Below, piece by piece: positions 32,992 through 59,543 of a stretch of DNA of 64,000 nt (positions are counted from its first letter, which is position 1; every line of letters begins with the position of its first letter). This DNA comes from Candidatus Omnitrophota bacterium (GTDB lineage: Bacteria > Omnitrophota > Gorgyraeia > Velamenicoccales > JABMQK01). The notes beneath the pieces are model-generated. The model worked only from the letters and a program-made list of their open reading frames with translations, was not told the origin of the DNA and did not search any database. The stretch lies in assembly GCA_028711115.1 (NCBI GenBank), contig JAQTSV010000001.1, positions 6,032 to 70,031 on the forward strand, read 5' to 3'. The translations under genes were made by a program, and so were the position numbers.

Positions 32992-32998
32992 GTTTTAT

Positions 32999-33889
32999 TT
33001 ACCTTAATCCTCCCAAGCCTCCGGTAGTGACAAATTGCAATAATACCGGTCCTCCCACAATTACGGCCACCACAGGCAGAATAAAGAATATCAAAGGTAT
33101 GAGCATCTTCATGGGTGCCTGCAGGGCTATCCTTTCCGCGCGTCTGAAAAACCTCTCGCGTACATCGTCTGAAAGGACGCTCAATGCCTGGGCAATAGGA
33201 ATACCCATTCTGTCGGCCTGAATGAGCGTGCGGCAAAATGCTGTGACATCAGGAAGGCTTAAGCGTTTTGCCATATCCGCAAGTGCGTCCCTGCGAGACT
33301 TTCCTACTTTTATTTCGTGTAATACCAAACTAAGCTCCTCTGTAAATGCATTAGCAAAAGATTTATCTACAATCCATCTGGCTGCGGCAATGAAATCCAG
33401 GCCTGCATCCACGCACAACGATAATAAATCCACCGTATCCGGAAGCGTCCGGATTATTTTTGACCTTCTATCCTGTACTTTAAAATTCAGCCAAATGTCC
33501 GGTGCGATAAAACCCACTATAGGCAGTATTATTAATGGCGCCACATCGCCGCTTCTTATGAACAGAAAAGTCAAAAACAAAAAGAAGAATGCCAATAATT
33601 CTTTTATGGCCAGGAAGTGCTCCGGCATCATAAATAACCTGGCTGCAAACATTTTCTCTTCCATTTTATTTCTCTTAAAAAATTTATTAACCAGCATATA
33701 GTTAACCGGCACGAAGAAATCCAGCATCGTGCCAAAGAAAGATTTTTTATTCTTGGTGCTGTATGCGTCCACCTTCAGTCTCCGTTGAATTGCCGTCTTT
33801 AATTCATAGGAGGTAAGCATTACAATCAAAACATTTGCCAGCAGTACGATTATCGCTATAAATAGAATTATCTGTGCAATTATCTCCAT
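32999..33889 (-). CDS. tadC: Tad pilus assembly inner-membrane platform protein TadC (T2SS-F family)
   Basis: 296-aa ORF. LPDTVDLLSLCVDAGLDF..LHEIKVGKSRRDALADMAKRL..FCRTLIQADRMGIPIAQAL..FILPVVAVIVGGPVLL is a typical TadC/GspF-type domain with flanking TM helices. Confidence 0.85.
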   Translation of the reverse strand: MEIIAQIILFIAIIVLLANVLIVMLTSYELKTAIQRRLKVDAYSTKNKKSFFGTMLDFFVPVNYMLVNKFFKRNKMEEKMFAARLFMMPEHFLAIKELLAFFFLFLTFLFIRSGDVAPLIILPIVGFIAPDIWLNFKVQDRRSKIIRTLPDTVDLLSLCVDAGLDFIAAARWIVDKSFANAFTEELSLVLHEIKVGKSRRDALADMAKRLSLPDVTAFCRTLIQADRMGIPIAQALSVLSDDVRERFFRRAERIALQAPMKMLIPLIFFILPVVAVIVGGPVLLQFVTTGGLGGLR

Positions 33890-33897
33890 ATCCTCTC

Positions 33898-34782
33898 CTA
33901 TAAATTCACCCTGCCGAACATCCTGATTAAAAATACGCCTACGATTTCCGAAATCACCGCGTACAGCAAAAGCCCCCTGCCCATAGGATTCGACAGCATA
34001 ATATCAAAGTAGTGCGGGTTAAAAGAATAAACCATTATCGTAAACACAATGGGCAAAAGTGACATAACCACGCCCTGAATCTTTCCCTGCATGCTCAGTG
34101 TCTTGACATTATCCGAGAGTTTAAGTTTTGCCCTGATAGTATTAATCAGGGTGCCGAACAATTGCGTAATATCGCCGCCGGTTTCTCTGGCCACCAGTAT
34201 CGCAGTGGTAAGTAAATTCAATTCTTCCGAAGGCATACGTTTGTTTAATCTGTCAAAAGATTCTTCCAAAGACATACCCATTTTATTCTCTCTTAAGATA
34301 ATGCCGAACTCCTGGCTGATGGGCGCAGGCAATTCCTCGACAAGCGCTTCAATCGCCTGCAGCAAGCTCAATCCTCCCTTAAGGCAGCTGGAAAGTATCA
34401 TCAGCCCGTCGCTAATCTGGGCATGAAATTTTTGCTTCCGGCCGACTATCATTCTCTTAAAAACAATACTAGGGATAAGAAAACCGATGGCCAGACCCAG
34501 CAATGCGCCGATGACATAGCTACCGAACACTCTCCCGAAAAATACGGCAGATACCAATGTGCAAATTGTGGGAGAAAGGGTATTAAACAGAACCAGTTTT
34601 TTGGCATCGATAAACAGCATCATCTCTTTTAAATTCATCTTCTGCTCTTCAATTTTGCGTGAGCGCCAACCAGAAAAAACCTTGAGCGCCACAGATGTAA
34701 ATTGCACGCCCTGGCTGGCAAGAACATAAATCGCACCTGCGATCAAGATGAAAACTACAAATTTTAAAATATCTGATGCCAT
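33898..34782 (-). CDS. tadB: Tad pilus assembly inner-membrane platform protein TadB (T2SS-F family)
   Basis: 294-aa ORF. LSSCLKGGLSLLQAIEALVEELPAPISQEFGIILRENKMGMSLEESFDRLNKRMPSEELNLLTTAILVARETGGDI, with TM helices at both ends. Confidence 0.85.
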   Translation of the reverse strand: MASDILKFVVFILIAGAIYVLASQGVQFTSVALKVFSGWRSRKIEEQKMNLKEMMLFIDAKKLVLFNTLSPTICTLVSAVFFGRVFGSYVIGALLGLAIGFLIPSIVFKRMIVGRKQKFHAQISDGLMILSSCLKGGLSLLQAIEALVEELPAPISQEFGIILRENKMGMSLEESFDRLNKRMPSEELNLLTTAILVARETGGDITQLFGTLINTIRAKLKLSDNVKTLSMQGKIQGVVMSLLPIVFTIMVYSFNPHYFDIMLSNPMGRGLLLYAVISEIVGVFLIRMFGRVNL

Positions 34783-35018: not shown

Positions 35019-37517
35019 TTAATTCCCCGGAACTAATCTTACACTATTTGGATTTTGATCAAAAGCTGCATGCGCTGTTCTTTCTATAACGCCTGTCTTC
35101 CATAAACCCAAAACACCAACCTGTTTCTCGCTGGGGTCTGTACGTCTTACCCTTACCCAAGTAGTGCTTCCATCGTCATTATAGTTTTCCAGCTGGAAAC
35201 AAGTTTTATAAGATAAATCTCCCCAGCCACTGCTCTGCCTGAATGAACGTATAGAGGGGATTTTAAAATTTGCTGGTAGCTGGATCTGTACGCTGTGTTG
35301 TCCACGGCTATCAACCCAGGTGTAAGACACAGGATTTATCCCGCCAAATTCTTGAGAAACATTTAGATTGGCATATGCTTGATCAATATCATTATATAAA
35401 GTTTGTATATCCACCTTAAAAGCCTCTAGTCTATCTATCATATAGTGGATTTCTGCCTCCGCAACTGCAAATTCATCTTCCATGTCCGCATCTATTGAGG
35501 TTTTACAGGGCGCATTAATAATTCCTTCTGCACCATAAGTACAATCCGGAAGATTATTTCTAATGCTCTGAATCACATACAGCCAACTGTATAATCCCTC
35601 TTGGAATCCTGTATCTGGGACACCGTCTAAAATCATATCGAAGAGCGCATAATAAGGGCCTTCGCTGGCTGGCGCGGTTTGGGCTGGATCATAAAACCAG
35701 TCCATCCAAAAACCCCACGAAGAAGCAATGGCCTCGAGGTCCTGCTGCTGGATAGCGTCTACTGTCCGCGTAAATTCTTTAAAAGTATCCATAGTATAAT
35801 CTACCTCGTCATAACCAAAATCCGGCATGGGACTGCAACTTTCGTCTTCACAATTTTCGTTACTATTAACCCAGTTATTCCATTGTTCCAAAGTTGGCCC
35901 TGGCTGCCAGAAAGAAACATCTATTCCGTGATTTTCTAATGTACTGAACAATTCTACAATCGGACCTGGATTAGCAGCGCAATCCAATTCCCCGCGATTA
36001 AGAAAGGCCATGGCATCATTCTTTAAAAATGTGTTGAACACAGGCATAGCCCCATTGTTGTCCTGATCCCAAAATCTCTTAATCCCTTCAAATATGGTGC
36101 CCAAGGATTGTTTAAGCTCGAATATCCTTCTGTCCCACCAAAATTGAAAGCGAGGAACGCTTTCCTGCGTATCGCCGTCACCGTCAGAATCACAGGGGTC
36201 GCCGCCCGTTACTGGCCCACTGCCACAATCAACAACTAAATCAGAAGGTGTCATATTGGGGTCATCTACAAGCTGTGACAATGCGGTTAAAAATGTGCCT
36301 TCTCTGTATGCATCTCTGTCCCCGAGGCTGTTTATAGAATTTACAAAAGAGCTAATGGCTTTACTCAAATCATTTTGCATCTTCTGAAGATCGCGATAGG
36401 AACCATAACCCGAAGCAGCCATATTCAGGGCTTCTCCTACTGTCAACGCTCCTTTTGAACCTGTTAACAATACCTCTCCTCCTATACTTGATATGGCGTT
36501 TGATACTGAACTAAGTCCCATCAAATCTAAACCCTGCCCTGGCAGGCTAGCTACCCAGCCTATTGCTGAATCAACGGCGTGGACAGCTGCTTGTATTCCG
36601 CCCCAAATCTGAGTACCTAGACCCGGCGTGGATGCGGGTGCTGCTGGTACTGCTGCTGGTGCTGCTGCTGGTGCTGCTGGGGCTCCGCCGCCCGCTGTTC
36701 CCCCAGCTGCGCCGCCTGCTGCTGCTGTGGTTATTGTGGCGCCTCCTGTTGCTGTTACTGTTGCTGTTACTCCTGCCGATGTGGCTACTGTTGCGGTTGC
36801 TCCTGCTGGCAATGCTATTGTTGCTGTGGTACCTGCTGCTACCGTCATTGTTGATGTGGTCCCTGCTGCTGTGGTTATTGTTACTGTTACATCTCCTCCC
36901 GCCGCTGCCACTGATACTGTTGATGCTGTATCTGCTGCTGCTGTTACTGTTGCGGTTCCTCCTCCTTCTACCGTTGCCATTGCTGGTGCAGCAGGGATAG
37001 CTACTCCTGCTGCTGCGCCAATAGCTGCGCCAATACAAGCGCCCATTAAAACAGTATTCCAAAAAGCTTTACTGCCGGCTATGGTCATACCCTGAATGGC
37101 TGCGCCGGTGGCAGCACCTATGGCCCCGGCTAAAGCACCGATAGCCACCAAAGCTAAAGGGGTTCCTATTCCTAAAGTTAATATCGATACGACTACAGCT
37201 GCAATCGCGAACAGCGCTGCTAATACCACCGCCACCCAACCCTGCTGATAACACTTCTTGGTCTGGTTGCCCAGCGACTCATATAGCTGGCGTGACCGAG
37301 TACTTAGCTGAGAAGCAAGCTGAAGCACAGATGCGTCTGCCACATTAGTAATAGCCGTTGTCTTAACTGCCACTTCACCAATATTTACAGTAATCAGTAT
37401 AAGCACCAATACAATCACCATTATTAAAATAAGCAGTGTAGCAATCTGGCCGCTTACACCTCTGCCAGTTTGAGAAAATATATTTACAAGGCCGACACTG
37501 CGTCTGTGCAACATCAT
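35019..37517 (-). CDS. TadG-like large pseudopilin/pilus-associated protein with TM-rich and Ala/Thr/Gly/Val low-complexity regions
   Basis: ORF 35019..37724. The likely start is Met70 (37517), downstream of the stop of the preceding gene. GVSGQIATLLILIMVIVLVLILITVNIGEVAVKTTAITNVADASVLQLAS matches the TadE/G-like N-terminus. A large globular C-terminal part follows. Confidence 0.65.
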   Translation of the reverse strand: MMLHRRSVGLVNIFSQTGRGVSGQIATLLILIMVIVLVLILITVNIGEVAVKTTAITNVADASVLQLASQLSTRSRQLYESLGNQTKKCYQQGWVAVVLAALFAIAAVVVSILTLGIGTPLALVAIGALAGAIGAATGAAIQGMTIAGSKAFWNTVLMGACIGAAIGAAAGVAIPAAPAMATVEGGGTATVTAAADTASTVSVAAAGGDVTVTITTAAGTTSTMTVAAGTTATIALPAGATATVATSAGVTATVTATGGATITTAAAGGAAGGTAGGGAPAAPAAAPAAVPAAPASTPGLGTQIWGGIQAAVHAVDSAIGWVASLPGQGLDLMGLSSVSNAISSIGGEVLLTGSKGALTVGEALNMAASGYGSYRDLQKMQNDLSKAISSFVNSINSLGDRDAYREGTFLTALSQLVDDPNMTPSDLVVDCGSGPVTGGDPCDSDGDGDTQESVPRFQFWWDRRIFELKQSLGTIFEGIKRFWDQDNNGAMPVFNTFLKNDAMAFLNRGELDCAANPGPIVELFSTLENHGIDVSFWQPGPTLEQWNNWVNSNENCEDESCSPMPDFGYDEVDYTMDTFKEFTRTVDAIQQQDLEAIASSWGFWMDWFYDPAQTAPASEGPYYALFDMILDGVPDTGFQEGLYSWLYVIQSIRNNLPDCTYGAEGIINAPCKTSIDADMEDEFAVAEAEIHYMIDRLEAFKVDIQTLYNDIDQAYANLNVSQEFGGINPVSYTWVDSRGQHSVQIQLPANFKIPSIRSFRQSSGWGDLSYKTCFQLENYNDDGSTTWVRVRRTDPSEKQVGVLGLWKTGVIERTAHAAFDQNPNSVRLVPGN

Positions 37518-37560
37518 CTGCAAAAATCTGCGAATATTTTTTGCAATAATTCTGCCAGAC

Positions 37561-37830
37561 TTAGTGAGATTCGCCAAAGATATCAAGTTTCGGATAATTT
37601 GATTCATTGATATACACCCCCTCGTTACCTGCAGCAATACTGCCGGCTGCAACTCTTGTTGATTCGTAATCTTCCTGGCGATGTGCCAGTCTTTCTGTAA
37701 ACCATATGAACATATATATAGCACCGGATAATAATACCGTCAGGCAAATAAATGCCAGGGTTATCTCCAGAGTTGCCTGAGCCCTTTTTGATTTATGCTG
37801 CCTGTCTGTTTTTACTGACCTGTCTGCCAT
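37561..37830 (-). CDS. TadE-like pseudopilin
   Basis: 89 aa. KRAQATLEITLAFICLTVLLSGAIYMFIWF is a TadE-type N-terminal helix. Confidence 0.6.
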   Translation of the reverse strand: MADRSVKTDRQHKSKRAQATLEITLAFICLTVLLSGAIYMFIWFTERLAHRQEDYESTRVAAGSIAAGNEGVYINESNYPKLDIFGESH

Positions 37831-38948
37831 GTCTTACTTCCTTGTTCTGACCTTGTGGTTGAATATTCTTCAGTCCGCACACTTGCCGCTGGCTGCGCAA
37901 TACCAGTCGTCTGATCCAAATGATCATTATATAAAATCGCCCTGGTTGTGGTCGTATTCCAATAAATATCGTCGGTGGTTGCAATGCCTGAGGCGCCTTC
38001 TGTCTTTCTCATCTCTAAATCTGTATTTACCTGTTGAGTATATTCGGGCTGAATGCCCATAGCCTGCACAGGCCTGCCTGAACCAGGAAAAGCGAATAGT
38101 TGCTCTATATGAGGAAAACTCCAGGTATCATTCTGTTCATAAAGACCGGCGTAACCATTGTGGTATCCTCCCGGCAGAGAAAATGGGGCGCCGTTGTGAT
38201 ACAAATCATAAAGATACCAAGGGACAAGCACTTCTTTAGCGCAAACTGAACTACAAGGAGTTGTATCGCCGGGTTTCTTTCCTCTCTCGCATTCCTGTGT
38301 GCAAAAATCCTGGTCCACAATCAAACGCGCCTGTCTTATGGCGTTATTATAATCCACTATCTCTCCTTCACAATAATCTACAACTGTTATAGTTCTGTTG
38401 CTACCCTGACAACCATCACCACTACACCATCCCCTGACATTGCCATATATTAAACCATATTTATCTCTTAAATATCTGTATTCATCTCCATTTTCCGGAA
38501 TATGTATATACTCGTCTCTTAATCCTGCTGTGGCTAAGGCGCGTTCCTGAGTGACTACCTGACCGTTTACTTTTCCCTGAAATTGCATAACCAGCTTGGG
38601 CAGACCATCGTAATCAGCTGCTGTGGCGTCTGCATTAGAGTCACGGGTGACGCTGGCTGATGCCATAAACGGGCTTACCTGGCCTACGCCAAACGGACTG
38701 GAAGGATCAGGAATGTGCCTGTCTTTGACAAGCACATATGTAGCTGAACCGTATGGCTGGCCACCGTTATCATTCTTAAAAGCCAGCTCCTGCGCTTTAC
38801 GAAATGCCTCCATCTGAGCCTGTTGCTGGAAATTGTATCTTAAACCGTATGCAACCAGAACGCCCAAAAGGAGCAGAATTAATGAACCGAAAATAGACAG
38901 CTCAAGCAGCGCCTGACCATTTTTAGTTTTTATATTTTTTATCATCAT
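37812..38948 (-). CDS. Large TadE-like protein with a Cys-rich extracellular domain
   Basis: 378 aa. KNGQALLELSIFGSLILLLLGVLVAYGL is a TadE-like N-terminus. A Cys cluster follows: WCSGDGCQGS..DYCEGE..DFCTQECERGKKPGDTTPCSSVCAKE. Confidence 0.6.
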   Translation of the reverse strand: MMIKNIKTKNGQALLELSIFGSLILLLLGVLVAYGLRYNFQQQAQMEAFRKAQELAFKNDNGGQPYGSATYVLVKDRHIPDPSSPFGVGQVSPFMASASVTRDSNADATAADYDGLPKLVMQFQGKVNGQVVTQERALATAGLRDEYIHIPENGDEYRYLRDKYGLIYGNVRGWCSGDGCQGSNRTITVVDYCEGEIVDYNNAIRQARLIVDQDFCTQECERGKKPGDTTPCSSVCAKEVLVPWYLYDLYHNGAPFSLPGGYHNGYAGLYEQNDTWSFPHIEQLFAFPGSGRPVQAMGIQPEYTQQVNTDLEMRKTEGASGIATTDDIYWNTTTTRAILYNDHLDQTTGIAQPAASVRTEEYSTTRSEQGSKTWQTGQ

Positions 38949-39355
38949 TAAAAAGCCCCTACTGTTTCTGTGCCGGTTCTTGATTGTTCATCCATATTTG
39001 TGGTGACTATGGTTGTGGCATTGACTCTATTAGCTGTTCTGTCTACATCGACAAGAGAAGTGCTGGTAATATCGCTACTGGTTGTAATTGTAAAATCAGA
39101 TTCTGTCGCGCCTGGCTCATACTGGCTGCCGATACTGTCAGCTGACTCGCGTATTTTTCCCTGAATACCGCGCTTAAGATAACTCTGCATTGCAATTAAA
39201 GCCACAATGATAACCACAATCACAAAAGCATATTCAATTACAGACGACTGACCAATTATGTTTTTAAAAAGATTTTTTAAAGATTTAAAATGAGGACAAT
39301 TTTTATCGCCCTGTTTTATATTCATATTACCGATTGTTTTATTCTGTTTGTTCAT
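38948..39355 (-). CDS. flp: Flp-type pilin paralogue (long, 135 aa from Met9)
   Basis: GQSSVIEYAFVIVVIIVALIAMQSYLKRGIQGKIRESADSIGSQYEP. The ATG at 39355 lies 2 nt after the upstream stop; the track start at 39379 would overlap the upstream gene. Confidence 0.7.
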   Translation of the reverse strand: MNKQNKTIGNMNIKQGDKNCPHFKSLKNLFKNIIGQSSVIEYAFVIVVIIVALIAMQSYLKRGIQGKIRESADSIGSQYEPGATESDFTITTSSDITSTSLVDVDRTANRVNATTIVTTNMDEQSRTGTETVGAF

Positions 39356-39357
39356 AA

Positions 39358-39732
39358 TTATAACTCGTGGTCCTGCCACGAAGTACTCACTCCTGTGTTA
39401 TCAGAATCCTGATTAAATGTGGATGTCACTTTGGAACTGTCGCCCGCGCCTTCCTCTTGAATTCTCATGCTTGCCTGCGACGTAGAACGCATCGCGATAT
39501 TCTGCGACATTGCTCTCTCCGCATTTGTCTCCATATATTCCTGGTTGCCTAATTGATCGGCGCTGTATTTAATCACTGACTGAATTCCCCGTTTCATATA
39601 AATTTGCATGGCAAGTAGGGCCGCAGACACTACAGCTATTAACAGTGCGTATTCTGCAATGCTTTGGCCCATTGTCTTTTTTGAGTCCTTAGTTTTGAGT
39701 TTTAAGTTTATCTTTATCATTCCTCTTGCCAT
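39358..39732 (-). CDS. flp: Flp-type pilin paralogue (124 aa)
   Basis: TMGQSIAEYALLIAVVSAALLAMQIYMKRGIQSVIKYSADQLGNQ. Confidence 0.75.
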   Translation of the reverse strand: MARGMIKINLKLKTKDSKKTMGQSIAEYALLIAVVSAALLAMQIYMKRGIQSVIKYSADQLGNQEYMETNAERAMSQNIAMRSTSQASMRIQEEGAGDSSKVTSTFNQDSDNTGVSTSWQDHEL

Positions 39733-39786
39733 TTCTGCCCTGTTATTTATGACTTATATAATATAGGCAGAAAATTCATTGCCCTC

Positions 39787-40113
39787 CTAATTTGTAGTAT
39801 TGTACTCATCTTCAAAGTTACCCATAGTTTCTGAACCTGTGCGCTGCTGCCAGGAATCCTCATACTTTGTAGTTGTCGTCCAGGCGTCCTGTGCTTCAGT
39901 TGTGTTTGAAAACGACTCGGTCCTATAATTGTATGTGGTATGGTCTGGAGAAAACTGATCTCCGATCTGATCCGCGGAATCCCTCATCCTACCCTGTATA
40001 CCGCGTTTCAAATATGCCTGTATAGCAATAAGGGCCATAATTACCACCACCACGAGTATTGCATACTCCAAGGTGCTTTGGCCTCTCTTTTTTGTCCTTA
40101 ATAAACGCATCAT
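39787..40113 (-). CDS. flp: Flp-type pilin paralogue (108 aa)
   Basis: MMRLLRTKKRGQSTLEYAILVVVVIMALIAIQAYLKRGIQGRMRDSADQIGDQFSP. Confidence 0.8.
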   Translation of the reverse strand: MMRLLRTKKRGQSTLEYAILVVVVIMALIAIQAYLKRGIQGRMRDSADQIGDQFSPDHTTYNYRTESFSNTTEAQDAWTTTTKYEDSWQQRTGSETMGNFEDEYNTTN

Positions 40114-40152
40114 TTATTCACCCCCTAACTTAAGTAGTTAGTTTTAGTTTGA

Positions 40153-40506
40153 CTAATCATTACCCTCTGACCAGTTGCCATATGTAATTTGACCTGTCCT
40201 GGCTGTATATTCATTTGTGATATCCCGCGTAATTTGACCACCCTTTTCCATGGCCTCAGATCTATCTGACCTGGATGCTGTGGACATGTTGGACTCCATA
40301 TAATATGGCTCATACTGAGATTGGGTAAATATGCCTTCACCTGTCTCATTGCCAATTGTCATACTATAATCCATTGCATCCTTTATGCGCGCCTGCATGC
40401 CACGACGCACATAAATCTGCATGGCTATGGCTGCCGCCACGATAACGCCGATTAATATTGCGTACTCTGCTGTATTTTGAGCTCTTTTATTTAGAAATCG
40501 TATCAT
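40153..40506 (-). CDS. flp: Flp-type pilin paralogue (117 aa)
   Basis: MIRFLNKRAQNTAEYAILIGVIVAAAIAMQIYVRRGMQARIKDAMD. Confidence 0.8.
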   Translation of the reverse strand: MIRFLNKRAQNTAEYAILIGVIVAAAIAMQIYVRRGMQARIKDAMDYSMTIGNETGEGIFTQSQYEPYYMESNMSTASRSDRSEAMEKGGQITRDITNEYTARTGQITYGNWSEGND

Positions 40507-40544
40507 CTTATGTCACCCCCATTTCACAATTATATAAATTTAAT

Positions 40545-40745
40545 TTAATTAGTGAAACCAAAACCTACCTTATTGCCGAAATAATCTGCGCCTCTCTCAA
40601 TGCTTGCTCCTGCCTGGTTGTAAGTCCTATTTACTGCCGGCTTAATAATGCTAACGGCTGCAAAAATAATTGCTGCTGCAATTGCTGTAAAAACGATAAC
40701 GTATTCGACGGTGCTTTGTCCGCGTCTGCCTCTCACTTTCTCCAT
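40545..40745 (-). CDS. flp: Flp-type pilin paralogue (66 aa)
   Basis: MEKVRGRRGQSTVEYVIVFTAIAAAIIFAAVSIIKPAVNRTY. Confidence 0.8.
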   Translation of the reverse strand: MEKVRGRRGQSTVEYVIVFTAIAAAIIFAAVSIIKPAVNRTYNQAGASIERGADYFGNKVGFGFTN

Positions 40746-40804
40746 CCTCCTTCACCCCCTTCCTGTTCTTTATTTTTTATAAAGAATGAATAAATCCGAT
40801 ACGG

Positions 40805-41041
40805 CTACCAGCTATAGGCATTGGCTACAAAATCCTCTGCCACGTGATTTATCGCCACCGATGTACTTTCAAATAACCTGTTTACAGACGGCCTTATAAA
40901 CGTAGTGGCCGCAAAAATTATCACCATTACTATCACAGAAAACATCACCACATACTCTATAATCATCTGGCCTTTATCCCTAGTGATTAGAGCCATCGTA
41001 TTAAACCATATACTCAAGATTGTTTTATTTAGCGTATTCAT
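40805..41041 (-). CDS. flp: Flp-type pilin paralogue (78 aa from the ATG at 41041)
   Basis: DKGQMIIEYVVMFSVIVMVIIFAATTFIRPSVNRLF. The ATG at 41041 lies 1 nt after the stop of the upstream unlisted flp gene. The start is uncertain (an alternative is Met16 of this ORF). Confidence 0.7.
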   Translation of the reverse strand: MNTLNKTILSIWFNTMALITRDKGQMIIEYVVMFSVIVMVIIFAATTFIRPSVNRLFESTSVAINHVAEDFVANAYSW

Positions 41042-41042
41042 T

Positions 41043-41213
41043 TTAGTTTGTCTCATTAATCTCTGCATTAACTTGGCCCTCTACAGTCTTAAGGTTGGCC
41101 TGAATCGCCCTTCTCACATAGAGAGACATAGCTATAAGCGCTGCGCTTACCACCGCGACCAAAACCGCATATTCCATTATGGACTGACCTCTTTTTCTGA
41201 AAAAATTAGCCAT
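41043..41213 (-). CDS. flp: Flp-type pilin, 56 aa (below the ORF-track length cut-off, so not listed)
   Basis: Hand translation gives MANFFRKRGQSIMEYAVLVAVVSAALIAMSLYVRRAIQANLKTVEGQVNAEINETN*. The ATG at 41213 is 2 nt after the upstream stop (41216-41218), and the TAA is at 41045-41043. Confidence 0.8.
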   Translation of the reverse strand: MANFFRKRGQSIMEYAVLVAVVSAALIAMSLYVRRAIQANLKTVEGQVNAEINETN

Positions 41214-41215
41214 GG

Positions 41216-41494
41216 TCAATTGCTCCCTGGGTTAACTATTCTCTGGATTGCCGCATCGCGCATATTGCCCAAGCTTCTCCGCACACTTGGGAAAAATGCA
41301 GAAATACTAATCACTGTCAAAGCAGCCACAATAGTAAACAGAATAAAATATTCTATGATAACCTGGCCTGCGTTTTGTCTTAAAGATTTTGTTAAGGAAT
41401 GAAAAGGTGAGGATCTATGTAAGATAATATATATACTTCTTAAACACTTTTTAAAACTTATTCTTAATTCTGGAGTTATAAAGTTCATTTTCAT
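41216..41494 (-). CDS. flp: Flp-type pilin paralogue with an unusually long leader (start uncertain)
   Basis: ..LRQNAGQVIIEYFILFTIVAALTVISISAFFPSVRRSLGNM. It is tightly coupled to the next flp gene. Confidence 0.6.
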   Translation of the reverse strand: MKMNFITPELRISFKKCLRSIYIILHRSSPFHSLTKSLRQNAGQVIIEYFILFTIVAALTVISISAFFPSVRRSLGNMRDAAIQRIVNPGSN

Positions 41495-43520: not shown

Positions 43521-43877
43521 CTATGTTTCTGCTATTTCTATTGTATCTTTTAAAGCGGTGTTTGTCCTGGCTAAAGTGCCTGCGGGTAGTTCTATAACAA
43601 GGTGCCCCCTGAACCACGAACCCTGGAGTCTAAGCGGCGGCAAAAACACAGCCATGGCTACAACTTTACCGCTCTTATCCAGAAATGCCACATCTATACT
43701 AAAGCGCATAAAAAATGTGTGGATTGAATTGCAGGGCTTGATTACCAGGCCTTCTCCCGCAGCCAAGTTGTCTCTGCCTAAAAGGCCTCTGAGGCGTTTC
43801 AAAAACGTCTCTGCCATTTCTGCCTTGTCTGCCAGGATTGTATTTTTAGTCCTGTTTATAATTCTGACATTGCCCAT
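43521..43877 (-). CDS. DUF192-family small protein
   Basis: 118 aa. GLVIKPCNSIHTFFMRFSIDVAFLDKSGKVV..VIELPAG is the typical DUF192 (COG1430) pattern. Confidence 0.65.
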   Translation of the reverse strand: MGNVRIINRTKNTILADKAEMAETFLKRLRGLLGRDNLAAGEGLVIKPCNSIHTFFMRFSIDVAFLDKSGKVVAMAVFLPPLRLQGSWFRGHLVIELPAGTLARTNTALKDTIEIAET

Positions 43878-53560: not shown

Positions 53561-53791
53561 TTATACCTCACTTAACACGCCTATTTTACCACCTTCTGAA
53601 AAAATCTCAACATAATACAGGTCCTCCATAGGCGGCATTTCATATTGCAGCTGAATAAAAACGATTATGGCCACGTTTTGATCATAGCCGTTAAACTTTT
53701 CAGATACTCTAGGAGAAATATATTGCTGAGGCGGTAAAAATAAAAGCCTGGAGCGCTTATCAGGGCTTGAAGATTTCGCGGGGTAGCTCAA
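53561..53791 (-). CDS. Possible small ORF between cpaF and phoB (doubtful)
   Basis: 76-aa ORF whose stop abuts the phoB ATG and whose 5' end overlaps the cpaF 3' end by 32 nt. No recognisable motif. Confidence 0.2.
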   Translation of the reverse strand: MSYPAKSSSPDKRSRLLFLPPQQYISPRVSEKFNGYDQNVAIIVFIQLQYEMPPMEDLYYVEIFSEGGKIGVLSEV

Positions 53792-55925
53792 CGCCTCTGG
53801 TGACTATATCATCATAAAAGGTAGGAATTATTCCTGTGGCCTGAAAATGCCCGATTACTTTATTGTTATTATTCCTGTCAATACCGGTCTGCTTAAAAAC
53901 AAAGAGGTCTTTTAGGTTAATATGCGTGTCATCCAGCATACCTACGACTTCGCTTATCTGGATAACCTTGCGCGTGCCGTCAGGTAAACGTGCGGTATGC
54001 ACAATCAAATCCACTGCCGAGGCAATCATCTCGCGGATTGCCCTCAAAGGAAGCTCAACCCCGCTCATTAAAATCATGGAATCCAGCCGGGTTAACACAT
54101 CCTGGGTAGAATTGGCATGCACAGTGGTCATAGAACCGTCGTGGCCTGTATTCATTGCCTGCAACATATCCAAGACTTCGCCGCCGCGGCACTCGCCTAC
54201 GATAATTCTGTCGGGCCGCATCCTCAGGGTATTTCTGAATAAATCCCTGACCGTAATGGCGCCTTTACCTTCTATGTTGTGCGGACGGGACTCCAGTCTT
54301 ATCCAGTGCTCCTGTGTAAGCCTGAGTTCTGCGGCGTCTTCAATGGTAATAATACGCTCTGTGCTGGGCACAAACTCCGAAAGAATATTTAAAAATGTGG
54401 TTTTACCTGAACCGGTTCCTCCGGAGACAATCAGGTTTATCCTGGATATAACACAGGCCTTCAGGAACTCCGCCATATTACCATCGAGACTTCCGAAGCG
54501 GCTAATCAAGTCCGCAATGGTATAGTGCTCCCGGGAGAATTTTCTGATAGTAAGCACCGGGCCTGATAGGGCCAAAGGAGGAATAATAGCGTTGACACGC
54601 GAACCGTCAGGAAGCCGGGAATCCACCATGGGCACAGATTCATCCAAACGCCTTCCCAAAGGAGCAATAATCCTTTCAATAATAATACGCACCTGGTCAT
54701 TAGAGATGAATTTCTTTGTGGTCATTTCTAACCTGCCGTGCCGCTCTATATATACCTGGTCCTTGCCATTAACCATTATGTCCGTTATATCGTTATCCTT
54801 TAGGAAATCTTCCAATGGGCCTAAGGCCAGGGCCTCGTCGCAAATTTCTTTTACAATGCGCTCCCTTACTTCAAAAGATGATAAAAACGCACCTGTTTCT
54901 TCTGATAATAAATTAGTCACAATCTTGTCTGCCTTCTCCCTTAATTCCTTGGCCTTCTGTGAATTGGTGATAATCTCCAGATCTAAGCGCTTGAGATCCA
55001 GCTCTTCGATTAATCTCTGATGGATATGCCGTTTTAACTTGATAACCTCGTCTTCCTCGGTAAGTACATCCATCTTTTTTTCCAATTCCGTAAGGCCCAT
55101 AGTATCCCAGAATGTCCCGGCGCCGGGCATCTTCTCTTTGGATTGTGCCCGCATCTGTTTTAACTCCTGGTGCTCAATATAAATGTCATTTCTCTTGATT
55201 AATACCTGGGCTAATTTTTTTATGGACTGGCTTACTCTGCAGGCAGGGCTGTCAATTACCACAGGAATGCCTCTGTTTAGGGCCAGGCCCACTATCTTTC
55301 CTTCGCTGGGTATGTGCGCCAGGACTTCATAAGGCAGAGCCAGACTTATCTCCTGCATAGAGAGCGCGGACTTACTTTCCGAACGGTTCAAGACCAGCTT
55401 GACCATATTCAAAGGAAAGTGCAACGACTGCAATACATCCAGTCCCCAGCGTGTCTCATAGACAGAGATAATATCCGGAGTGACCACAAACAAAATAAGG
55501 TTGGAACAGTTAAAGGCAGCGATTAGGCTGTCTGTAAAGGCCTTGCCGCCATCCAGGATAATAAAATCGTATTGCTCTATAAGCATGTTCATCACCATAT
55601 CCACGCGCTCAATTATAATGTGCGATGCCTGCTTGGGGCGGGTAACTGCCGGCAGGAAATCTATGCCTGCGGAAGGAACCAAAGTGATATAATTCTTAAT
55701 ATTGCCTAATTCCTTAATCTTGTCTATAATCGCGGAGATGTCGTACATAGAATACTGCGCTGTGACATCTATCATGCGCGACATATCCTGCGCGGCCTGC
55801 AAATCAAAATCCACAAGAATGACTTTTTTGCCTTCCTGTGCCAAAGACACGGCCAGGTTTACAGCCATAAAAGTCTTTCCTACGCCGCCCTTGGTGCTAA
55901 ACAGAGAAATCAGGTTTGCCTTCAT
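53760..55925 (-). CDS. cpaF: Fusion protein: N-terminal ParA/MinD-type (CpaE/TadZ-like) domain plus C-terminal CpaF/TadA secretion ATPase
   Basis: The N-terminus has the deviant Walker A LFSTKGGVGKTFMAVNLA..VILVDFDLQ. The C-terminus has VDSRLPDGSRVNAIIPPLA..SGGTGSGKTTFLN..IITIEDAAEL..RMRPDRIIVGECRGGE..AMNTGHDGSMTTVHAN. Confidence 0.88.
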   Translation of the reverse strand: MKANLISLFSTKGGVGKTFMAVNLAVSLAQEGKKVILVDFDLQAAQDMSRMIDVTAQYSMYDISAIIDKIKELGNIKNYITLVPSAGIDFLPAVTRPKQASHIIIERVDMVMNMLIEQYDFIILDGGKAFTDSLIAAFNCSNLILFVVTPDIISVYETRWGLDVLQSLHFPLNMVKLVLNRSESKSALSMQEISLALPYEVLAHIPSEGKIVGLALNRGIPVVIDSPACRVSQSIKKLAQVLIKRNDIYIEHQELKQMRAQSKEKMPGAGTFWDTMGLTELEKKMDVLTEEDEVIKLKRHIHQRLIEELDLKRLDLEIITNSQKAKELREKADKIVTNLLSEETGAFLSSFEVRERIVKEICDEALALGPLEDFLKDNDITDIMVNGKDQVYIERHGRLEMTTKKFISNDQVRIIIERIIAPLGRRLDESVPMVDSRLPDGSRVNAIIPPLALSGPVLTIRKFSREHYTIADLISRFGSLDGNMAEFLKACVISRINLIVSGGTGSGKTTFLNILSEFVPSTERIITIEDAAELRLTQEHWIRLESRPHNIEGKGAITVRDLFRNTLRMRPDRIIVGECRGGEVLDMLQAMNTGHDGSMTTVHANSTQDVLTRLDSMILMSGVELPLRAIREMIASAVDLIVHTARLPDGTRKVIQISEVVGMLDDTHINLKDLFVFKQTGIDRNNNNKVIGHFQATGIIPTFYDDIVTRGVELPREIFKP

Positions 55926-55968: not shown

Positions 55969-57624
55969 TTAATTATCTGCCTTGAAAACCAAAGGAATAT
56001 CAATCCACAGTTCCTTGAGCTTCAACTGCGACGGAAAAGCAGGAAACGGAGAAAGTTTTTTTACATTGTGTTCTGCCGTATCGTCTAAAGACTGATTTCC
56101 TGATGACTGCATAATAACCACGCCTAGGAGTTTTCCGTCGGGCAACAGGTGCAGGCTTAATTTTACCGTCCCTCCGATCCCTTTATTTTTTAGTTCCTGC
56201 GGATAATTTATATTGGAATTTATGATATTTTGTATTAATGTCGAGTAAACAAAAACCGGGTCATCATCGGCTATGGGCCGCGCCTCTATTGGCTCGACAT
56301 CCTGCCTTTTGGATAAATTCTGCGTGAGCGCCGGCACCTTAACTACGGCTTCAGAACTGGCCGGTATTTCATTCAAAGACTTGTTTCTTAGAATCGTAGG
56401 AGAGAGAGTGATAACTATTTCCGTATCCTCCTGGCTCAAATCCTTGCTGCGGAAAAACAGACCCATCAGAGGTATGCGCGCCAAGAATGGAACCTGCGTC
56501 CTATTGTCGGCCCTTGCTGATTTTATCAATCCTGCCAAAAATACTGTCTGGCCGCTTAATAAAGACAGTTCTGTCTGCACGCTTCTCTCTGTAAGACCAG
56601 GCGTGGAAACACCAGAGTTAAGCGTTATTGCATTGGAAGTATCAATATCTGTAATCTTGACTTCTAGATTCACCGATATCTCATCATTTTCTTTAACTAC
56701 AGGTTTTACATTTAAGCTTATGCCGTACTCCTTCATTTCTATATTGTAACCCGTGGAGACGCCGCCTGTGCCACTTGTAGTTGTGCTGCTGGTAATAATG
56801 GGCCTTTCGCCGCCTACTAATAATTTTGCCTCTTTACCGCTTAGGCAGACGAGTTTAGGCCGGGAAAGTGTACGCGCCCTATTGTCCTGCTTAAGCAAAT
56901 TTAATGTAGCGGCCAACTCATCTGCTCTCCAGGATTTTAGGATGTGCAGCGTACGCGCAGGGTTGAGCAACCCGCTGGGAAAACCGCTGGTATTGGGTTC
57001 GTTAAAAGCGATACTGGTATTCCAGGTAAACCCCAGATTATCCAGGTCTGTCTTAGCAATCTCTAAGACTTCCACGTCTATCTCTACAGTAGGAATGTCA
57101 TCTTTATATTCCACCAGATTGACTATTTTATCTTTTACCAATTCTAATTTGCTTTCTAAAGAATCTTTCTGGGAAGCAGGGACTTCTCCCAAGATAAAAA
57201 TTTTTCTTTCTTTATCGCCGATTTGCGTAGCCAGCCTGTCGAAACCGGCAGCCTTCAATAAAACATCCACCCTTTCCTTTATTTTATCTAGATCTTCCTT
57301 GAATATTTTTACGGCGTATATGTGTTGGCCGTAATTATCCACGACGGTAAGCTGGGTTTCGCCTTCGGCTAATCCCGACAGCAAAAGTTCCTTTTCGCCT
57401 GCGCTTGCCACATCGAGTAAGTTGGGATTACCAATTTTAACCTGTTTGGGATTGCTGACGCTTAAGGTTTGTGTCTCTCCGATAATAACTTTAATCTCAT
57501 CGGAATAATCTGCAGCTTCTGCCTTGATATCCGCGAAAAAAAGACAAAACAAGATAAAACAAGCCACGCCAGAAATAAGAGTCTTTATCTGCTTTGCGCT
57601 ATTATTGGTATGTTTGATTTTCAT
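55969..57624 (-). CDS. cpaC: Tad secretin CpaC/RcpA with a C-terminal TonB-C-like domain
   Basis: Signal peptide, then N-domains. The secretin core is RTLSRPKLVCLSGKEAKLLVGGE..GISLNVKPVV..TELSLLSGQTVFLAGLI..VPFLARIPLMGLFFRS. The last ~90 aa (55969-56240) read YPQELKNKGIGGTVKLSLHLLPDGKLLGVVIMQSSGNQSLDDTAEHNVKKLSPFP, a TonB C-terminal pattern. Confidence 0.85.
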   Translation of the reverse strand: MKIKHTNNSAKQIKTLISGVACFILFCLFFADIKAEAADYSDEIKVIIGETQTLSVSNPKQVKIGNPNLLDVASAGEKELLLSGLAEGETQLTVVDNYGQHIYAVKIFKEDLDKIKERVDVLLKAAGFDRLATQIGDKERKIFILGEVPASQKDSLESKLELVKDKIVNLVEYKDDIPTVEIDVEVLEIAKTDLDNLGFTWNTSIAFNEPNTSGFPSGLLNPARTLHILKSWRADELAATLNLLKQDNRARTLSRPKLVCLSGKEAKLLVGGERPIITSSTTTSGTGGVSTGYNIEMKEYGISLNVKPVVKENDEISVNLEVKITDIDTSNAITLNSGVSTPGLTERSVQTELSLLSGQTVFLAGLIKSARADNRTQVPFLARIPLMGLFFRSKDLSQEDTEIVITLSPTILRNKSLNEIPASSEAVVKVPALTQNLSKRQDVEPIEARPIADDDPVFVYSTLIQNIINSNINYPQELKNKGIGGTVKLSLHLLPDGKLLGVVIMQSSGNQSLDDTAEHNVKKLSPFPAFPSQLKLKELWIDIPLVFKADN

Positions 57625-57625
57625 T

Positions 57626-58489
57626 CTATTTTTTGAGTTCTATCTGTTCTTTTTTTGCGCCTTTATAAATCTCTAAAGTAGGGGCTGGCGGAGGCGGTGG
57701 CGCCACAGGCTGCTCCACGACCTGCGGTTCTTCCTTTTTCTTTTCTTGCTGGGGCTGTTGCATAAGTTGCTGACCTAAGTTACTGATGATATACTGCCAA
57801 AGGGCATTGGCCTCAATAGGTGGAACAGATTCGATGGCTGTATCCAGGGGCTGCCTTAAAATAAATCTTAACGCCCCTTGTGTCATAGCATAAGACAGAA
57901 TTGCTGATTCCTGTGGTGTCAGCGCCAAAATAAACACCAAGCTTCCGGAACTATCTCTGTTAACCCCCATTACCAGAATTTTCTGAAACAAGGTAACGCT
58001 GACATTTTCCGTGACAGCTTTGCCGTCGACATTCTGCGTATAAGGAAACCCGCCGATAATATCAATATAATCTCCTGCCTTGACTTCGCCGGCCACAGCC
58101 ATAAGCGGTTCTATTTTAATTGTAAAAGCCCTTTTGCCGGTCGGTAACCGCACAGCCAGGCTGTCTTCGGTTTTACGAATAGTAGTAAGCATAGTAGACA
58201 AAACCTGCCCGTCTTTATGTATGTCTGTCACGGCTATTTTACCAAAAGCCGCATTGGGATTCTGCAGAACGTCTGGCTGCATATACTGGACGGGGAACTT
58301 GACCTGTCTGAGCATATTCGGCTGGATAGTGGCGCCTTTGGGGATATCCTGGCCTGCCACTACGATGGTCGTCTCTTGAAGTTGAATTTTGTATTTCTGT
58401 TTTTCGCGATTTAAATAAGTATTAATCATTACCACTGCCAAAAGAGACATGACCACAGCGATAATGATGCTCAATAACCTTTTATTCAT
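57626..58489 (-). CDS. cpaB: Flp pilus assembly protein CpaB/RcpC
   Basis: An N-terminal TM helix, a SAF-like TTIVVAGQDIPKGATIQPNMLRQVKFP, then RAFTIKIEPLMAVAGEVKAGDYIDIIG and a Pro-rich tail. 1-nt gap to cpaC. Confidence 0.8.
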   Translation of the reverse strand: MNKRLLSIIIAVVMSLLAVVMINTYLNREKQKYKIQLQETTIVVAGQDIPKGATIQPNMLRQVKFPVQYMQPDVLQNPNAAFGKIAVTDIHKDGQVLSTMLTTIRKTEDSLAVRLPTGKRAFTIKIEPLMAVAGEVKAGDYIDIIGGFPYTQNVDGKAVTENVSVTLFQKILVMGVNRDSSGSLVFILALTPQESAILSYAMTQGALRFILRQPLDTAIESVPPIEANALWQYIISNLGQQLMQQPQQEKKKEEPQVVEQPVAPPPPPAPTLEIYKGAKKEQIELKK

Positions 58490-58616: not shown

Positions 58617-59543
58617 CTACTTCAGCAGTTCTTCTTTTATCTCTACCGTGGAATCTCTCTTGAGTTTATCCACAAGCTCCTGGATGCGCTGTTGCTGCTT
58701 CAGCGGCAATAGGCTATTTTTAACCTGATCCCATACCTCTGTGAGAGGCTTTATCTTAGGAGCCTTGACTTCTTCTACTTTTATTATATAAAATCCCTTC
58801 GGGCCTTTGAATATGCTGCTTATCTGGCCGGCGTCCAAAGCAAATGCCACTTCGTCGAATTTCTTATAATCTTCCCCTAATTGGCCTTTCTTAATAAAGC
58901 CTATGTCTCCGCCCTTATTCTTGCTGTCGCTGACGGATTTATCTCTGGCCAAAGTGGCAAAATCCTGACCCTGTAATATGGCGATATTAATCTCCTTGGC
59001 TGCATCTTCGCTGGGCACTACGATCTCGCGCACATGCCTTTCTTCCGGTTCGGAAAGCTGTTCTTTGTATTGATTATAAAATACCTCTATCTCCTGAGGA
59101 TCGACGGCAATATTCTCTGTGACATCGATAACCAGCTGTCTCACTGCCAAACCCCTTAAATAACCGTCGGCTAAATCCTGGATTTCTTTCCTCACGGGAA
59201 TGCCCCTGGATCTTGCCTCCTGGTATAACAACTCCTGATTAATCATCTCGTCCAATAAACTCTTCTTCATCTCAGGAGTATTTATCTTGATTTCTGGTGA
59301 GAGCGCCTCAAGATTTTTGATATTCTGCTCTAATTCCTCCAAAGTAATCACCTTATCGTTTACCTTGGCCAATACTGTGCCTTGCGGCTTCTGCGCCGGT
59401 GCGGCCGGAGCGGCTTGTGTTGCTGCCTGATGCTTTACGGTTACTGCTGGTGCACTGCTTTTAAAAATTTTTTCAATCTGGTCACAACCCATAATAAAAC
59501 CTGCTGCCAAAATCACGGCCACTAGAAAAATACCTTTTTTCAT
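58617..59543 (-). CDS. Parvulin-type peptidyl-prolyl isomerase lipoprotein (PrsA/SurA-like)
   Basis: The signal is MKKGIFLVAVILAAGFIMGC (lipobox). The PpiC domain is HVREIVV..AKEINIAILQGQDFATLARDKSVSDSKNKGGDIGFIKKGQL..FDEVAFALDAGQISSIFKGPKGFYIIKVEE. Confidence 0.8.
   Translation of the reverse strand: MKKGIFLVAVILAAGFIMGCDQIEKIFKSSAPAVTVKHQAATQAAPAAPAQKPQGTVLAKVNDKVITLEELEQNIKNLEALSPEIKINTPEMKKSLLDEMINQELLYQEARSRGIPVRKEIQDLADGYLRGLAVRQLVIDVTENIAVDPQEIEVFYNQYKEQLSEPEERHVREIVVPSEDAAKEINIAILQGQDFATLARDKSVSDSKNKGGDIGFIKKGQLGEDYKKFDEVAFALDAGQISSIFKGPKGFYIIKVEEVKAPKIKPLTEVWDQVKNSLLPLKQQQRIQELVDKLKRDSTVEIKEELLK

Follow-up and report, generated by a model that had tools for sequence, protein, structure and literature searches.

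A Tad-type secretin with a C-terminal TonB_C domain in Omnitrophota, and its possible role as a built-in anchor

Each secretion system assembles and anchors its secretin in its own way, and RcpA with TadD is, to our knowledge, the only pair worked out for Tad pili. Omnitrophota are thought to use a Tad system for attachment to hosts or prey, and the machine is adjoined by their giant genes, so that the way its secretin is anchored bears on this lifestyle. In Pseudomonas aeruginosa the C-terminal tail of RcpA is unstructured and recruits the pilotin lipoprotein TadD, and the last four residues of this C-terminal S-domain bind TadD and are essential for secretin assembly (PMC10499894). The 64,000-nucleotide stretch of Candidatus Omnitrophota DNA analysed here, the window, encodes a protein that an earlier note, made from the letters of the sequence, had described as a Tad secretin carrying a C-terminal TonB-C-like domain. 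Is that domain genuine, and what may it do at the place where RcpA has its pilotin-binding tail?

From its N-terminus the gene product has a pil_N domain, then the secretin core, a disordered linker of 42 residues and lastly a TonB_C domain; these four parts and a second periplasmic domain are laid out as follows.

55969..57624, minus strand: Tad-type secretin with C-terminal TonB_C, 551 aa plus stop (open reading frame list, Pfam, NCBIfam)
57307..57501, minus strand: N-terminal pil_N domain, a beta-sandwich, residues 42-106 (PF13629, E 1.7e-9; pLDDT 88-97)
57055..57291, minus strand: second periplasmic alpha/beta domain, residues 112-190 (AlphaFold2 secondary structure, pLDDT >90)
56386..56895, minus strand: Secretin core, outer-membrane beta-barrel and gate, residues 244-413 (PF00263, E 2.7e-41)
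56260..56385, minus strand: flexible linker, polar and unconserved, residues 414-455 (predicted disordered; pLDDT <50 at 419-452)
55981..56259, minus strand: TonB/TolA-type C-terminal domain, residues 456-548 (PF03544, TIGR01352, pLDDT, TM-scores)

The protein is identical to NCBI MDD5004905.1, entered as 'TonB family protein [Candidatus Omnitrophota bacterium]'. Its Secretin match reaches 141 bits over residues 244-413. STN and Secretin_N have no Pfam match in it, the N-domain being of the pil_N type instead of N0/STN. STN (PF07660, 'Secretin and TonB N-terminus') is distinct from TonB_C and occurs in TonB-dependent receptors and at secretin N-termini, not in TonB; it is present in some secretins, P0083 and P0087-P0089 for example, and absent from that of the window. 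The pil_N domain is probably the docking site for the C-terminal hairpin of CpaB, because in P. aeruginosa the RcpC beta-hairpin binds the RcpA N-domain (PMC12307814). Residues 112-190 are without a Pfam match and resemble a ring-building N1 domain in predicted fold pattern only (H112-125, E132-149, H150-166, E167-190 in the AlphaFold2 model). The linker is polar with few prolines (NKSLNEIPASSEAVVKVPALTQNLSKRQDVEPIEARPIADDD), and only three residues separate the end of the TonB_C domain from the stop codon.

With the full protein as query, the Pfam family TonB_C (PF03544) matches residues 471-548 at an E-value of 2.2e-14 and 54.1 bits (gathering cut-off 24.6), and with the C-terminal 120 residues alone the E-value is 1.5e-15. 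TonB_2 of Pfam also matches the secretin (E 6.8e-8), as does the NCBIfam profile tonB_Cterm, TIGR01352 (E 3.7e-15, 56 bits; cut-off 27.1). AlphaFold2, applied to the monomer, gives residues 456-547 a pLDDT above 90 and an alpha-alpha-beta-beta-alpha-beta fold, for which Foldseek searches of the PDB returned the Helicobacter pylori TonB C-terminal domain 5lw8 (TM 0.72, rmsd 2.7 Å over 91 columns), 9dc4_T, a TonB bound to TbpA (0.70), 6sly (0.68) and the TolA C-terminal domain 2x9a_B (0.65). The remainder of the model has secretins as its top Foldseek matches, among them 9wfd, 8jvb and RcpA 8odn, and a profile of the family finds Acidithiobacillus caldus 8jvb at 1.2e-71, RcpA 8odn at 1.8e-53 and TonB 6sly at 5e-12. 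Matches of both kinds, to profiles and to structures, whose absence would by the earlier note have refuted its reading, were found far beyond chance, and the protein is confirmed as a Tad-type (RcpA/CpaC) secretin with a genuine C-terminal TonB_C domain. The description in the earlier note therefore stands on the Secretin, TonB_C and tonB_Cterm matches, and two of the checks it had proposed, a search with Secretin and TonB_C profiles (E 2.7e-41 and 2.2e-14) and a structure prediction for the C-terminus (pLDDT >90; TM 0.65-0.72 to TonB and TolA C-terminal domains), both came out in its favour. With the C-domains of TonB, HasB and TolA (5LW8, 6SLY, 9DC4, 2M2K, 2X9A, 6S3W) the domain shares the fold, at those TM-scores, and a signature made up of a YP motif, SSG, LD and a proline-containing beta3. 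The TolA C-terminal domain family PF06519 scores 20.2 bits, under its cut-off of 25, and there are no tol genes nearby.

Database names such as 'TonB family protein' and 'TonB C-terminal domain-containing protein', given by NCBI and UniRef to this protein and its relatives, would suit a true TonB, or an artefact that joined a secretin gene to an adjacent tonB gene. Either is almost certainly wrong. The N-terminus (MKIKHTNNSAKQIKTLISGVACFILFCLFFADIKAEA...) consists of a signal peptide and then secretin domains, with neither a membrane anchor of the TonB type nor an S-x-H-x-L-x-S (SHLS) pattern, and the linker lacks a proline-rich, periplasm-spanning character. Docking of an SHLS-motif transmembrane helix into ExbB/ExbD is a defining feature of TonB, and TonB and TolA are inner-membrane-anchored force transducers with such a helix and a periplasm-spanning domain II (PMC12204202), whereas the Omnitrophota domain hangs from an outer-membrane channel without any motor-binding part. 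Neither ExbB/ExbD nor TonB-dependent transporters were found among the open reading frames scanned (33-64 kb) or in two related neighbourhoods (L001 and L003), and no TolQ/TolR genes in the scanned frames of the window or related neighbourhoods. As to an artefact, independent assemblies from NCBI, JGI, ENA and Logan agree on one continuous reading frame, which recurs in at least 84 loci and in over 200 protein clusters. The gene does not encode an energy-transducing TonB.

The fusion is conserved across the phylum Omnitrophota and is no assembly artefact. Of 212 family members 210 retain TonB_C, without exception at the very end of the protein with a median of two residues after it, and ten members have two copies. 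All 84 secretin reading frames of the related loci, nearly all of which are labelled Omnitrophota, carry it, so the recurrence in related genomes for which the earlier note had proposed a search is borne out. Both domains are present in every one of the homologues P0002-P0066, down to 33% identity. The best 150 representatives of an exhaustive search (50% identity clusters) all have E-values below 1e-112 and are family members, and most of them cover the TonB_C end of the profile. No earlier description of a secretin-TonB_C fusion, whether sought with Omnitrophota or with RcpA, was found within an incomplete coverage of the literature. Residues conserved at 87% or more in the 210 members are Y460, Y474-P475, G485, G497, S507-S508-G509, D514, F530-P531 and P544, and strand beta3 of TonB_C is the most conserved secondary-structure element of the family (mean 2.81 bits). 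Linker length varies from 20 to 53 aa in 52 homologues and from 14 to 355 aa (median 36) in the 210 members; 31 of these have charged linkers of 180-355 aa, and the long linkers are rich in E, K and R and resemble TolA domain II. The extra parts of the long family members are further TonB_C copies and charged spacers only, with no wall-binding or TPR domains.

The secretin sits in a Tad gene cluster of conserved order, namely lipoprotein PPIase, CpaB, secretin-TonB_C, TadZ::CpaF, DUF192, Flp pilins and TadB/C, followed in the window by a giant gene.

58617..59543, minus strand: lipoprotein parvulin-type PPIase with SurA-like N-domain (Rotamase_2 E 5.2e-17, SurA_N_3)
57626..58489, minus strand: CpaB/RcpC, inner-membrane-anchored periplasmic conduit protein (TIGR03177 E 5.2e-38; RcpC and SAF domains)
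53760..55925, minus strand: fused ParA/MinD-like (TadZ/CpaE-like) protein and CpaF/TadA secretion ATPase, 721 aa (T2SSE E 2e-63)
43521..43877, minus strand: DUF192 protein (PF02643 E 3.9e-19; synteny)
38948..41494, minus strand: about eight Flp-type pilin/pseudopilin genes with G/xxxxEY motif (translations; weak Class_IIIsignal matches)
35019..38948, minus strand: u901, an Ala/Thr/Gly-rich membrane protein, and u378, with a pseudopilin-like N-terminus, both without a Pfam match
32999..34782, minus strand: TadB-like and TadC-like platform proteins, two T2SSF-domain proteins (PF00482 E 5.6e-18, 7.5e-16)
1..32994, minus strand: start of a giant gene immediately downstream of TadC (longest minus-strand open stretch)

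These operon partners, CpaB/RcpC, CpaF/TadA, TadB/C and Flp pilins, are the same as those of RcpA/CpaC, and the secretin shares with the P. aeruginosa protein (PDB 8ODN; PMC10499894) a pil_N-type N-domain and the secretin core (profile E 1.8e-53). The PPIase gene is the conserved first gene of the module and lies directly upstream of cpaB wherever the sequence of the 84 loci allows this to be seen. Its 'GC[D/E]' lipobox is near-invariant among 69 orthologues, and the acidic +2 residue would signal retention in the inner membrane by rules that are those of Escherichia coli and may not be those of Omnitrophota. The CpaB stop codon is 1 nt ahead of the secretin start codon, and CpaB ends, after a Pro/charge-rich linker, in a (V/I)E(I/V)YRG motif that is conserved in about 70 orthologues. 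The TadZ::CpaF fusion, which has AAA_31, CbiA and ParA matches in its N-terminal part and a TadA-family ATPase match at E 1.5e-101, comes after the secretin in related loci as well, and in most of them the DUF192 gene is directly after the ATPase gene. The pilin reading frame at 41043-41219 matches Flp_Fap (E 1.3e-4), while u901 and u378 are conserved cluster proteins with orthologues in many related loci. The giant gene is open for at least 10,998 codons, extends past the edge of the window and has a Peptidase_C39 match near its N-terminus (E 3.3e-7). The earlier note did not mention the remaining Tad genes of the window, those for TadB/C (32999-34782) and for about eight Flp pilins (38948-41494), nor the PPIase directly upstream of CpaB.

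What this cluster appears to lack is the partner of RcpA. Pfam-level annotation of reading frames of at least 100 aa between 33 and 64 kb of the window contains no TadD-like TPR lipoprotein or recognisable pilotin, in agreement with the remark in the earlier note that no separate pilotin or TadD-type protein is to be seen there, and none is present in that of the L001 and L003 neighbourhoods (flanks of about 10 kb). The PPIase is the only lipoprotein found in the cluster, where there is no TPR match. The 1.57-Mb genome may have a gene for a divergent pilotin at another place. In place of the unstructured RcpA tail with its bound TPR lipoprotein TadD, the Omnitrophota secretin, in whose cluster a TadD-like gene was not detected, has a linker and a folded TonB_C domain. 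That the domain might act in cis as a pilotin does in trans is structurally sensible, because it occupies the position of the TadD-binding tail of RcpA (PMC10499894).

We lean, if only slightly, towards the TonB_C domain being a built-in docking or anchoring module that binds a strand of an envelope partner and makes a separate pilotin unnecessary. The canonical TadD-recruiting tail would have been replaced in this lineage by a flexible linker and a TonB/TolA-type domain, and each assembled ring would have 13-14 tethered TonB_C domains hung around the periplasmic rim of its barrel, as the RcpA ring has 13-14 subunits. Each might then capture an exposed strand of the partner by beta-strand addition, the mode of all characterised C-domains of TonB, TolA and HasB, and such a hold would keep the secretin in place, stabilise it and let it resist the pulling forces of the pilus. 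That the domain binds anything, that its ligand would be a protein strand and not peptidoglycan, and that it takes over the function of a pilotin are inferences. By a rough division of the chances for the ligand, somewhat under half falls to a protein strand, about a third to peptidoglycan and small, similar shares to self-association and to anything else. The C-domains of TonB and TolA bind their targets by beta-strand addition (PMC12204202). Conservation of beta3, the strand that pairs with TonB boxes, may be counted for a strand-binding role; it also fits purely structural constraints, since its hydrophobic residues and 'vP' motif are typical of TonB_C generally. The range of linkers, 14-355 aa with the long ones rich in E, K and R, agrees with a domain whose task takes it some way from the barrel, and the occurrence of 14-20 aa in some species and more than 300 aa in others is hard to reconcile with one fixed partner geometry.

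Three candidate strands from the locus itself were set aside. The CpaB tail, whose 'VEIYRG' is the sole conserved strand-like motif found in a neighbouring protein and looked like a candidate TonB box, was rejected as the ligand in favour of the known contact that the beta-hairpin of the homologous RcpC makes with the N-domain of RcpA (PMC12307814). The N-terminal tether of the PPIase has no conserved strand motif ahead of its folded domain, only the 'GC[D/E]' lipobox. At the N-terminus of the mature secretin, 'DEIKVIIGET' has the look of a TonB box, yet in the model it forms the first strand of the folded pil_N domain (pLDDT about 88-95).

OmpA consists of a beta-barrel, a short flexible linker and a small globular periplasmic domain that binds the wall, and the secretin follows the same logic of an outer-membrane barrel with a tethered periplasmic globular domain, although barrel and domain are both from unrelated families. 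This likeness to the OmpA C-domain, and that to the AMIN domains of PilQ, raise the possibility, on balance a doubtful one, that TonB_C binds peptidoglycan directly, fixing the secretin so that it withstands the pull of a retracting pilus as the cell attaches to host or prey. The wall beneath the outer membrane is within reach of linkers of 14 aa and of 355 aa alike, and the Tad field has no wall-interacting component assigned (PMC12307814). Type IVa secretins have an envelope-binding module in cis or on a partner, PilQ-AMIN and the LysM of TsaP/FimV, as a presumed anchor, and the AMIN domains of PilQ, peptidoglycan binders with a proposed role in withstanding retraction, provide a precedent for secretin anchoring (PMC5285504). 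The module is however AMIN or LysM there and TonB_C here, AMIN is N-terminal and TonB_C C-terminal, and peptidoglycan is the proven ligand of PilQ AMIN whereas the ligand of the Omnitrophota domain is putative. No peptidoglycan-binding family (OmpA_C, LysM, AMIN, SPOR) has a Pfam match in the secretin or its domain at E-values up to 1. Literature models do place TonB in association with peptidoglycan, but in the papers covered the binding experiments concern ExbD, MotB and AMIN domains, while for TonB such binding is asserted, and the solved complexes of the TonB_C fold are all with peptides. The general statement in the earlier note that TonB-C domains bind peptidoglycan is accordingly weakly documented in the literature covered, beta-strand addition to a partner peptide being the established mode (PMC12204202).

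The docking module just set beside the wall anchor must also be weighed against self-association, in which neighbouring TonB_C domains would dimerise or oligomerise around the ring and staple its subunits, stabilising the multimer with no external ligand, a part that belongs to the S-domain in the secretins of type II secretion. Fragments of the E. coli TonB C-domain crystallise as strand-exchanged dimers, 13-14 domains per ring would be at high local concentration, and some family members have tandem copies. Such stapling is nonetheless unlikely: the charged linkers of 180-355 aa in 31 members would be unnecessary at the barrel wall, and an odd C13 stoichiometry, as in RcpA, leaves domains unpaired (PMC10499894).

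Coupling to a motor in the reverse sense of Ton or Tol is more improbable still. TonB_C would here take a TonB-box-like strand of a protein in the inner membrane that draws on proton-motive force or is attached to a motor, and the motor would gate or position the secretin; with equally little likelihood, the fusion would be the counterpart in one protein of PocAB-TonB3, which Pseudomonas needs, in a way not yet explained, to assemble its type IVa pili. Production and localisation of the P. aeruginosa pilus depend on those ExbBD-TonB homologues, and TonB3 has been suggested to touch the N0 domain of PilQ (PMC5285504). Both cases link a TonB-type protein to a secretin-dependent pilus, but in P. 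aeruginosa TonB3 stands by itself in the inner membrane, has a motor of its own and makes a contact that is speculative, whereas the Omnitrophota secretin has the C-domain alone, covalently fused. Domain fusions often flag interacting proteins, and the TolA-like charged spacers of some members could span the periplasm. Set against this are the missing ExbB/ExbD and TolQ/TolR genes in the scanned window and related neighbourhoods, a median linker of 36 aa that is too short to cross the periplasm, and a Tad secretin N-domain of the pil_N type (VirB9-like as described for RcpA) rather than N0/STN. Another reading treats the fusion as a 'Rosetta stone', with TonB-type C-domains as genuine secretin partners and TonB_C capturing a strand that belongs to the periplasmic ring of the machine or to a protein which sits in the inner membrane or is linked to a motor. 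We think this improbable as well; if true, it would couple the positioning or gating of the secretin to the rest of the envelope and would help to explain by mechanism why type IVa pili need PocAB-TonB3.

A phylum-wide TonB/TolA-type domain in place of a pilotin-binding tail suggests a different, self-contained solution to secretin anchoring for Tad pili, and a further task for a domain that had been familiar as part of force transducers. Both the spread of the fusion through the phylum and the database name 'TonB family protein' were absent from the earlier note. In at least one survey (10.64898/2026.06.07.730766) such secretins appear to have been counted as 'TonB-domain content', and by this counting, as by the 'TonB family protein' naming, a Tad secretin is hidden and Ton systems are overstated.

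A Tad secretin with a TonB/TolA-type domain in place of the pilotin-binding tail is found widely in one phylum. On the minus strand, the ORF at 55969-57624 exists exactly as described in the earlier note, which from sequence alone had claimed a Tad secretin fused to a TonB-C-like domain, and it encodes 551 aa. Pfam places T2SS-T3SS_pil_N at residues 42-106 (E 1.7e-9), Secretin at 244-413 (E 2.7e-41) and TonB_C at 471-548 (E 2.2e-14, 54 bits against a cut-off of 24.6), and the NCBIfam model tonB_Cterm concurs on the C-terminal domain (E 3.7e-15). An AlphaFold2 model, with a 52-sequence family alignment as input, has a mean pLDDT of 80.5 and an alpha-alpha-beta-beta-alpha-beta fold at residues 456-547 with pLDDT >90; across the linker, residues 419-452, pLDDT is <50, and so it is probably disordered. 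When the model was compared with the PDB by Foldseek, secretins ranked first (including 9wfd, 8jvb and RcpA, 8odn), and the C-terminal domain resembled the H. pylori TonB-CTD 5lw8 (TM 0.72, rmsd 2.7 A), TbpA-bound TonB 9dc4_T (TM 0.70) and the TolA-CTD 2x9a_B (TM 0.65). Against solved structures the family profile matches RcpA at 1.8e-53 and TonB 6sly at 5e-12. With both profile and structure matches to TonB_C in hand, the observation stands: the fusion is real and the domain assignment correct.

The fusion is conserved and is not an artefact. All 65 further homologues from a homologue search, down to 33% identity, have pil_N, Secretin and TonB_C (a few partial sequences excepted for pil_N), and the matches that rank next (28% identity or less) are CpaC and GspD secretins of the ordinary kind, which lack TonB_C. 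When 1.84 billion representatives were searched exhaustively with a profile, each of the best 150 matches had E <1e-112, and most of them align via the TonB_C end of the family profile. Scanning species-representative genomes gave 207 relatives, and in all of the best 80 the match extends to about residue 548-551; nearly all are labelled Omnitrophota, and the few labelled Planctomycetia, Deltaproteobacteria or Patescibacteria have identical synteny. The same fusion, which the earlier note had proposed seeking in related genomes, is present in 210 of 212 family members (one TonB_C copy in 200, two in 10, none in 2), with a linker of 14-355 aa (median 36) and a median of 2 residues from the domain to the C-terminus. 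All 84 secretin ORFs of the fetched loci carry TonB_C, and no other ORF in the approximately 10 kb around them does. P0109, P0117, P0123, P0129, P0170, P0177, P0136 and P0222, family members outside the window, each show one or more of three additions: a second TonB_C domain in tandem, E/K/R-rich spacers of 180-370 aa, or a long charged tail at the C-terminus; such spacers look like TolA domain II.

In P. aeruginosa RcpA has an unstructured C-terminal S-domain, of which the last four residues enter a groove of the TPR lipoprotein TadD, and without this contact the secretin is neither assembled nor localised (PMC10499894). Exactly where RcpA has this TadD-binding tail, Omnitrophota secretins have the linker followed by TonB_C. 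The conserved cluster shows no detectable TPR lipoprotein, in keeping with the earlier remark that a separate pilotin was not seen. The fusion poses a clean, testable question on pilotin-independent secretin anchoring, and may tie in with the so far unexplained relation of TonB3 to type IV pili.

The secretin gene is part of a tight minus-strand module, with the CpaB stop codon 1 nt before the secretin start codon and a gap of 43 nt to the next gene:

58617-59543, minus strand, lipoprotein parvulin PPIase, first gene of the module
57626-58489, minus strand, CpaB/RcpC, second gene
55969-57624, minus strand, secretin, third gene
53760-55925, minus strand, fused ParA/TadZ-like::CpaF ATPase, fourth gene

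All characterised domains of the TonB_C fold attach to their targets by beta-strand addition (PMC12204202), and among the secondary-structure elements of the family conservation is highest in beta3, the strand pairing with TonB boxes. Members with two TonB_C domains or with E/K/R-rich, TolA domain II-like spacers of 180-355 aa point to a module reaching outward from the barrel. Because of these features, the position of TonB_C in place of the TadD-binding tail and the lack of a detectable TPR lipoprotein, it is proposed that a ring of tethered docking domains would localise, stabilise or brace the secretin, taking over in cis the job shared in trans by pilotin and S-domain. Such a ring would be a functional analogue of the peptidoglycan-binding AMIN domains of PilQ (PMC5285504). 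A docking or anchoring role seems a reasonable hypothesis.

As to what the domain binds, a protein strand is given a little under an even chance and is slightly favoured over peptidoglycan, a lesser though still appreciable prospect, because only peptide binding has structural support. Two local candidates for such a strand were set aside. At the C-terminus of CpaB (57626-57770, minus strand) a linker rich in Pro and charged residues, here PPPPPAP, leads into a conserved (V/I)E(I/V)YRG(L/T)xKE motif. This is probably the counterpart of the beta-hairpin with which P. aeruginosa RcpC contacts the N-domain of its secretin; that known contact accounts for it. The PPIase and its orthologues in the related loci are lipoproteins of parvulin type with a SurA-like N-domain. 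Their tether has no conserved strand motif, and the acidic +2 residue of the lipobox, GC[D/E], nearly invariant in 69 orthologues, would by E. coli rules hold the protein in the inner membrane. The PPIase may serve the secretin as its own chaperone.

The family is named in public records for its smaller domain, as 'TonB family protein' or 'TonB C-terminal domain-containing protein' (MDD5004905.1; UniRef100_A0A2G9YLT0), the identical protein being NCBI MDD5004905.1, 'TonB family protein [Candidatus Omnitrophota bacterium]', on a 1.57-Mb contig. Three parts define TonB and TolA: an N-terminal membrane helix with an SHLS motif, which docks into the motor; a domain II that spans the periplasm; and the C-terminal domain (PMC12204202). 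The protein here has the last of these alone. It starts with a signal peptide that leads into secretin domains, its linker is polar and short, and genes for exbBD, tolQR or TonB-dependent transporters are absent near the secretin, so the database name is misleading. The 'TonB-domain' genes flanking giant genes in 10.64898/2026.06.07.730766 are most likely this secretin, since their UniRef match is family member P0053 (Secretin plus TonB_C), and that study appears to have counted such secretins as 'TonB-domain content' beside giant genes.

Tad complexes of Omnitrophota have been described (PMC10066038), as have giant genes with pilus machinery on their flanks (10.1101/2023.11.21.568195; 10.64898/2026.06.07.730766); a TonB domain on the secretin is mentioned in none of the three, and the searchable literature holds no discussion of the fusion. 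A giant ORF directly after TadC (1-32994, minus strand; at least 10,998 codons, running past the start of the window) fits these published genes. It has an N-terminal hydrophobic segment and, in its first 1000 residues, Peptidase_C39 at 187-276 (E 3.3e-7).

In about 80 species the module runs straight into DUF192, which is followed by an unknown protein of 514 aa, 4-8 Flp pilins, two more unknown proteins and TadB/TadC; the same downstream genes are at 32999-43877 in the window. Whereas the ATPase and DUF192 genes are adjacent or nearly so in those loci, here a complete Pho regulon intervenes (44040-53560, minus strand: PhoU, PstBACS, a Porin_5 porin, a PhoR-like kinase and two OmpR-type regulators). 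The 721-aa product of 53760-55925 joins a ParA/MinD-like (TadZ/CpaE-like) ATPase to the CpaF/TadA secretion ATPase, which are separate in canonical Tad systems, and it comes next after the secretin in every related locus with enough sequence to tell. About eight tandem small Flp-type pilin/pseudopilin genes with a G/xxxxEY processing motif lie at 38948-41494 (minus strand), and the ORFs scanned in the window showed no prepilin peptidase (TadV). On the opposite strand, adjoining the Tad module both here (60063-63561, plus strand) and in many related loci (L001, L017, L022 and others), is a signalling cassette of FIST-domain protein, GAF histidine kinase and response regulator, a candidate regulator of the Tad system.
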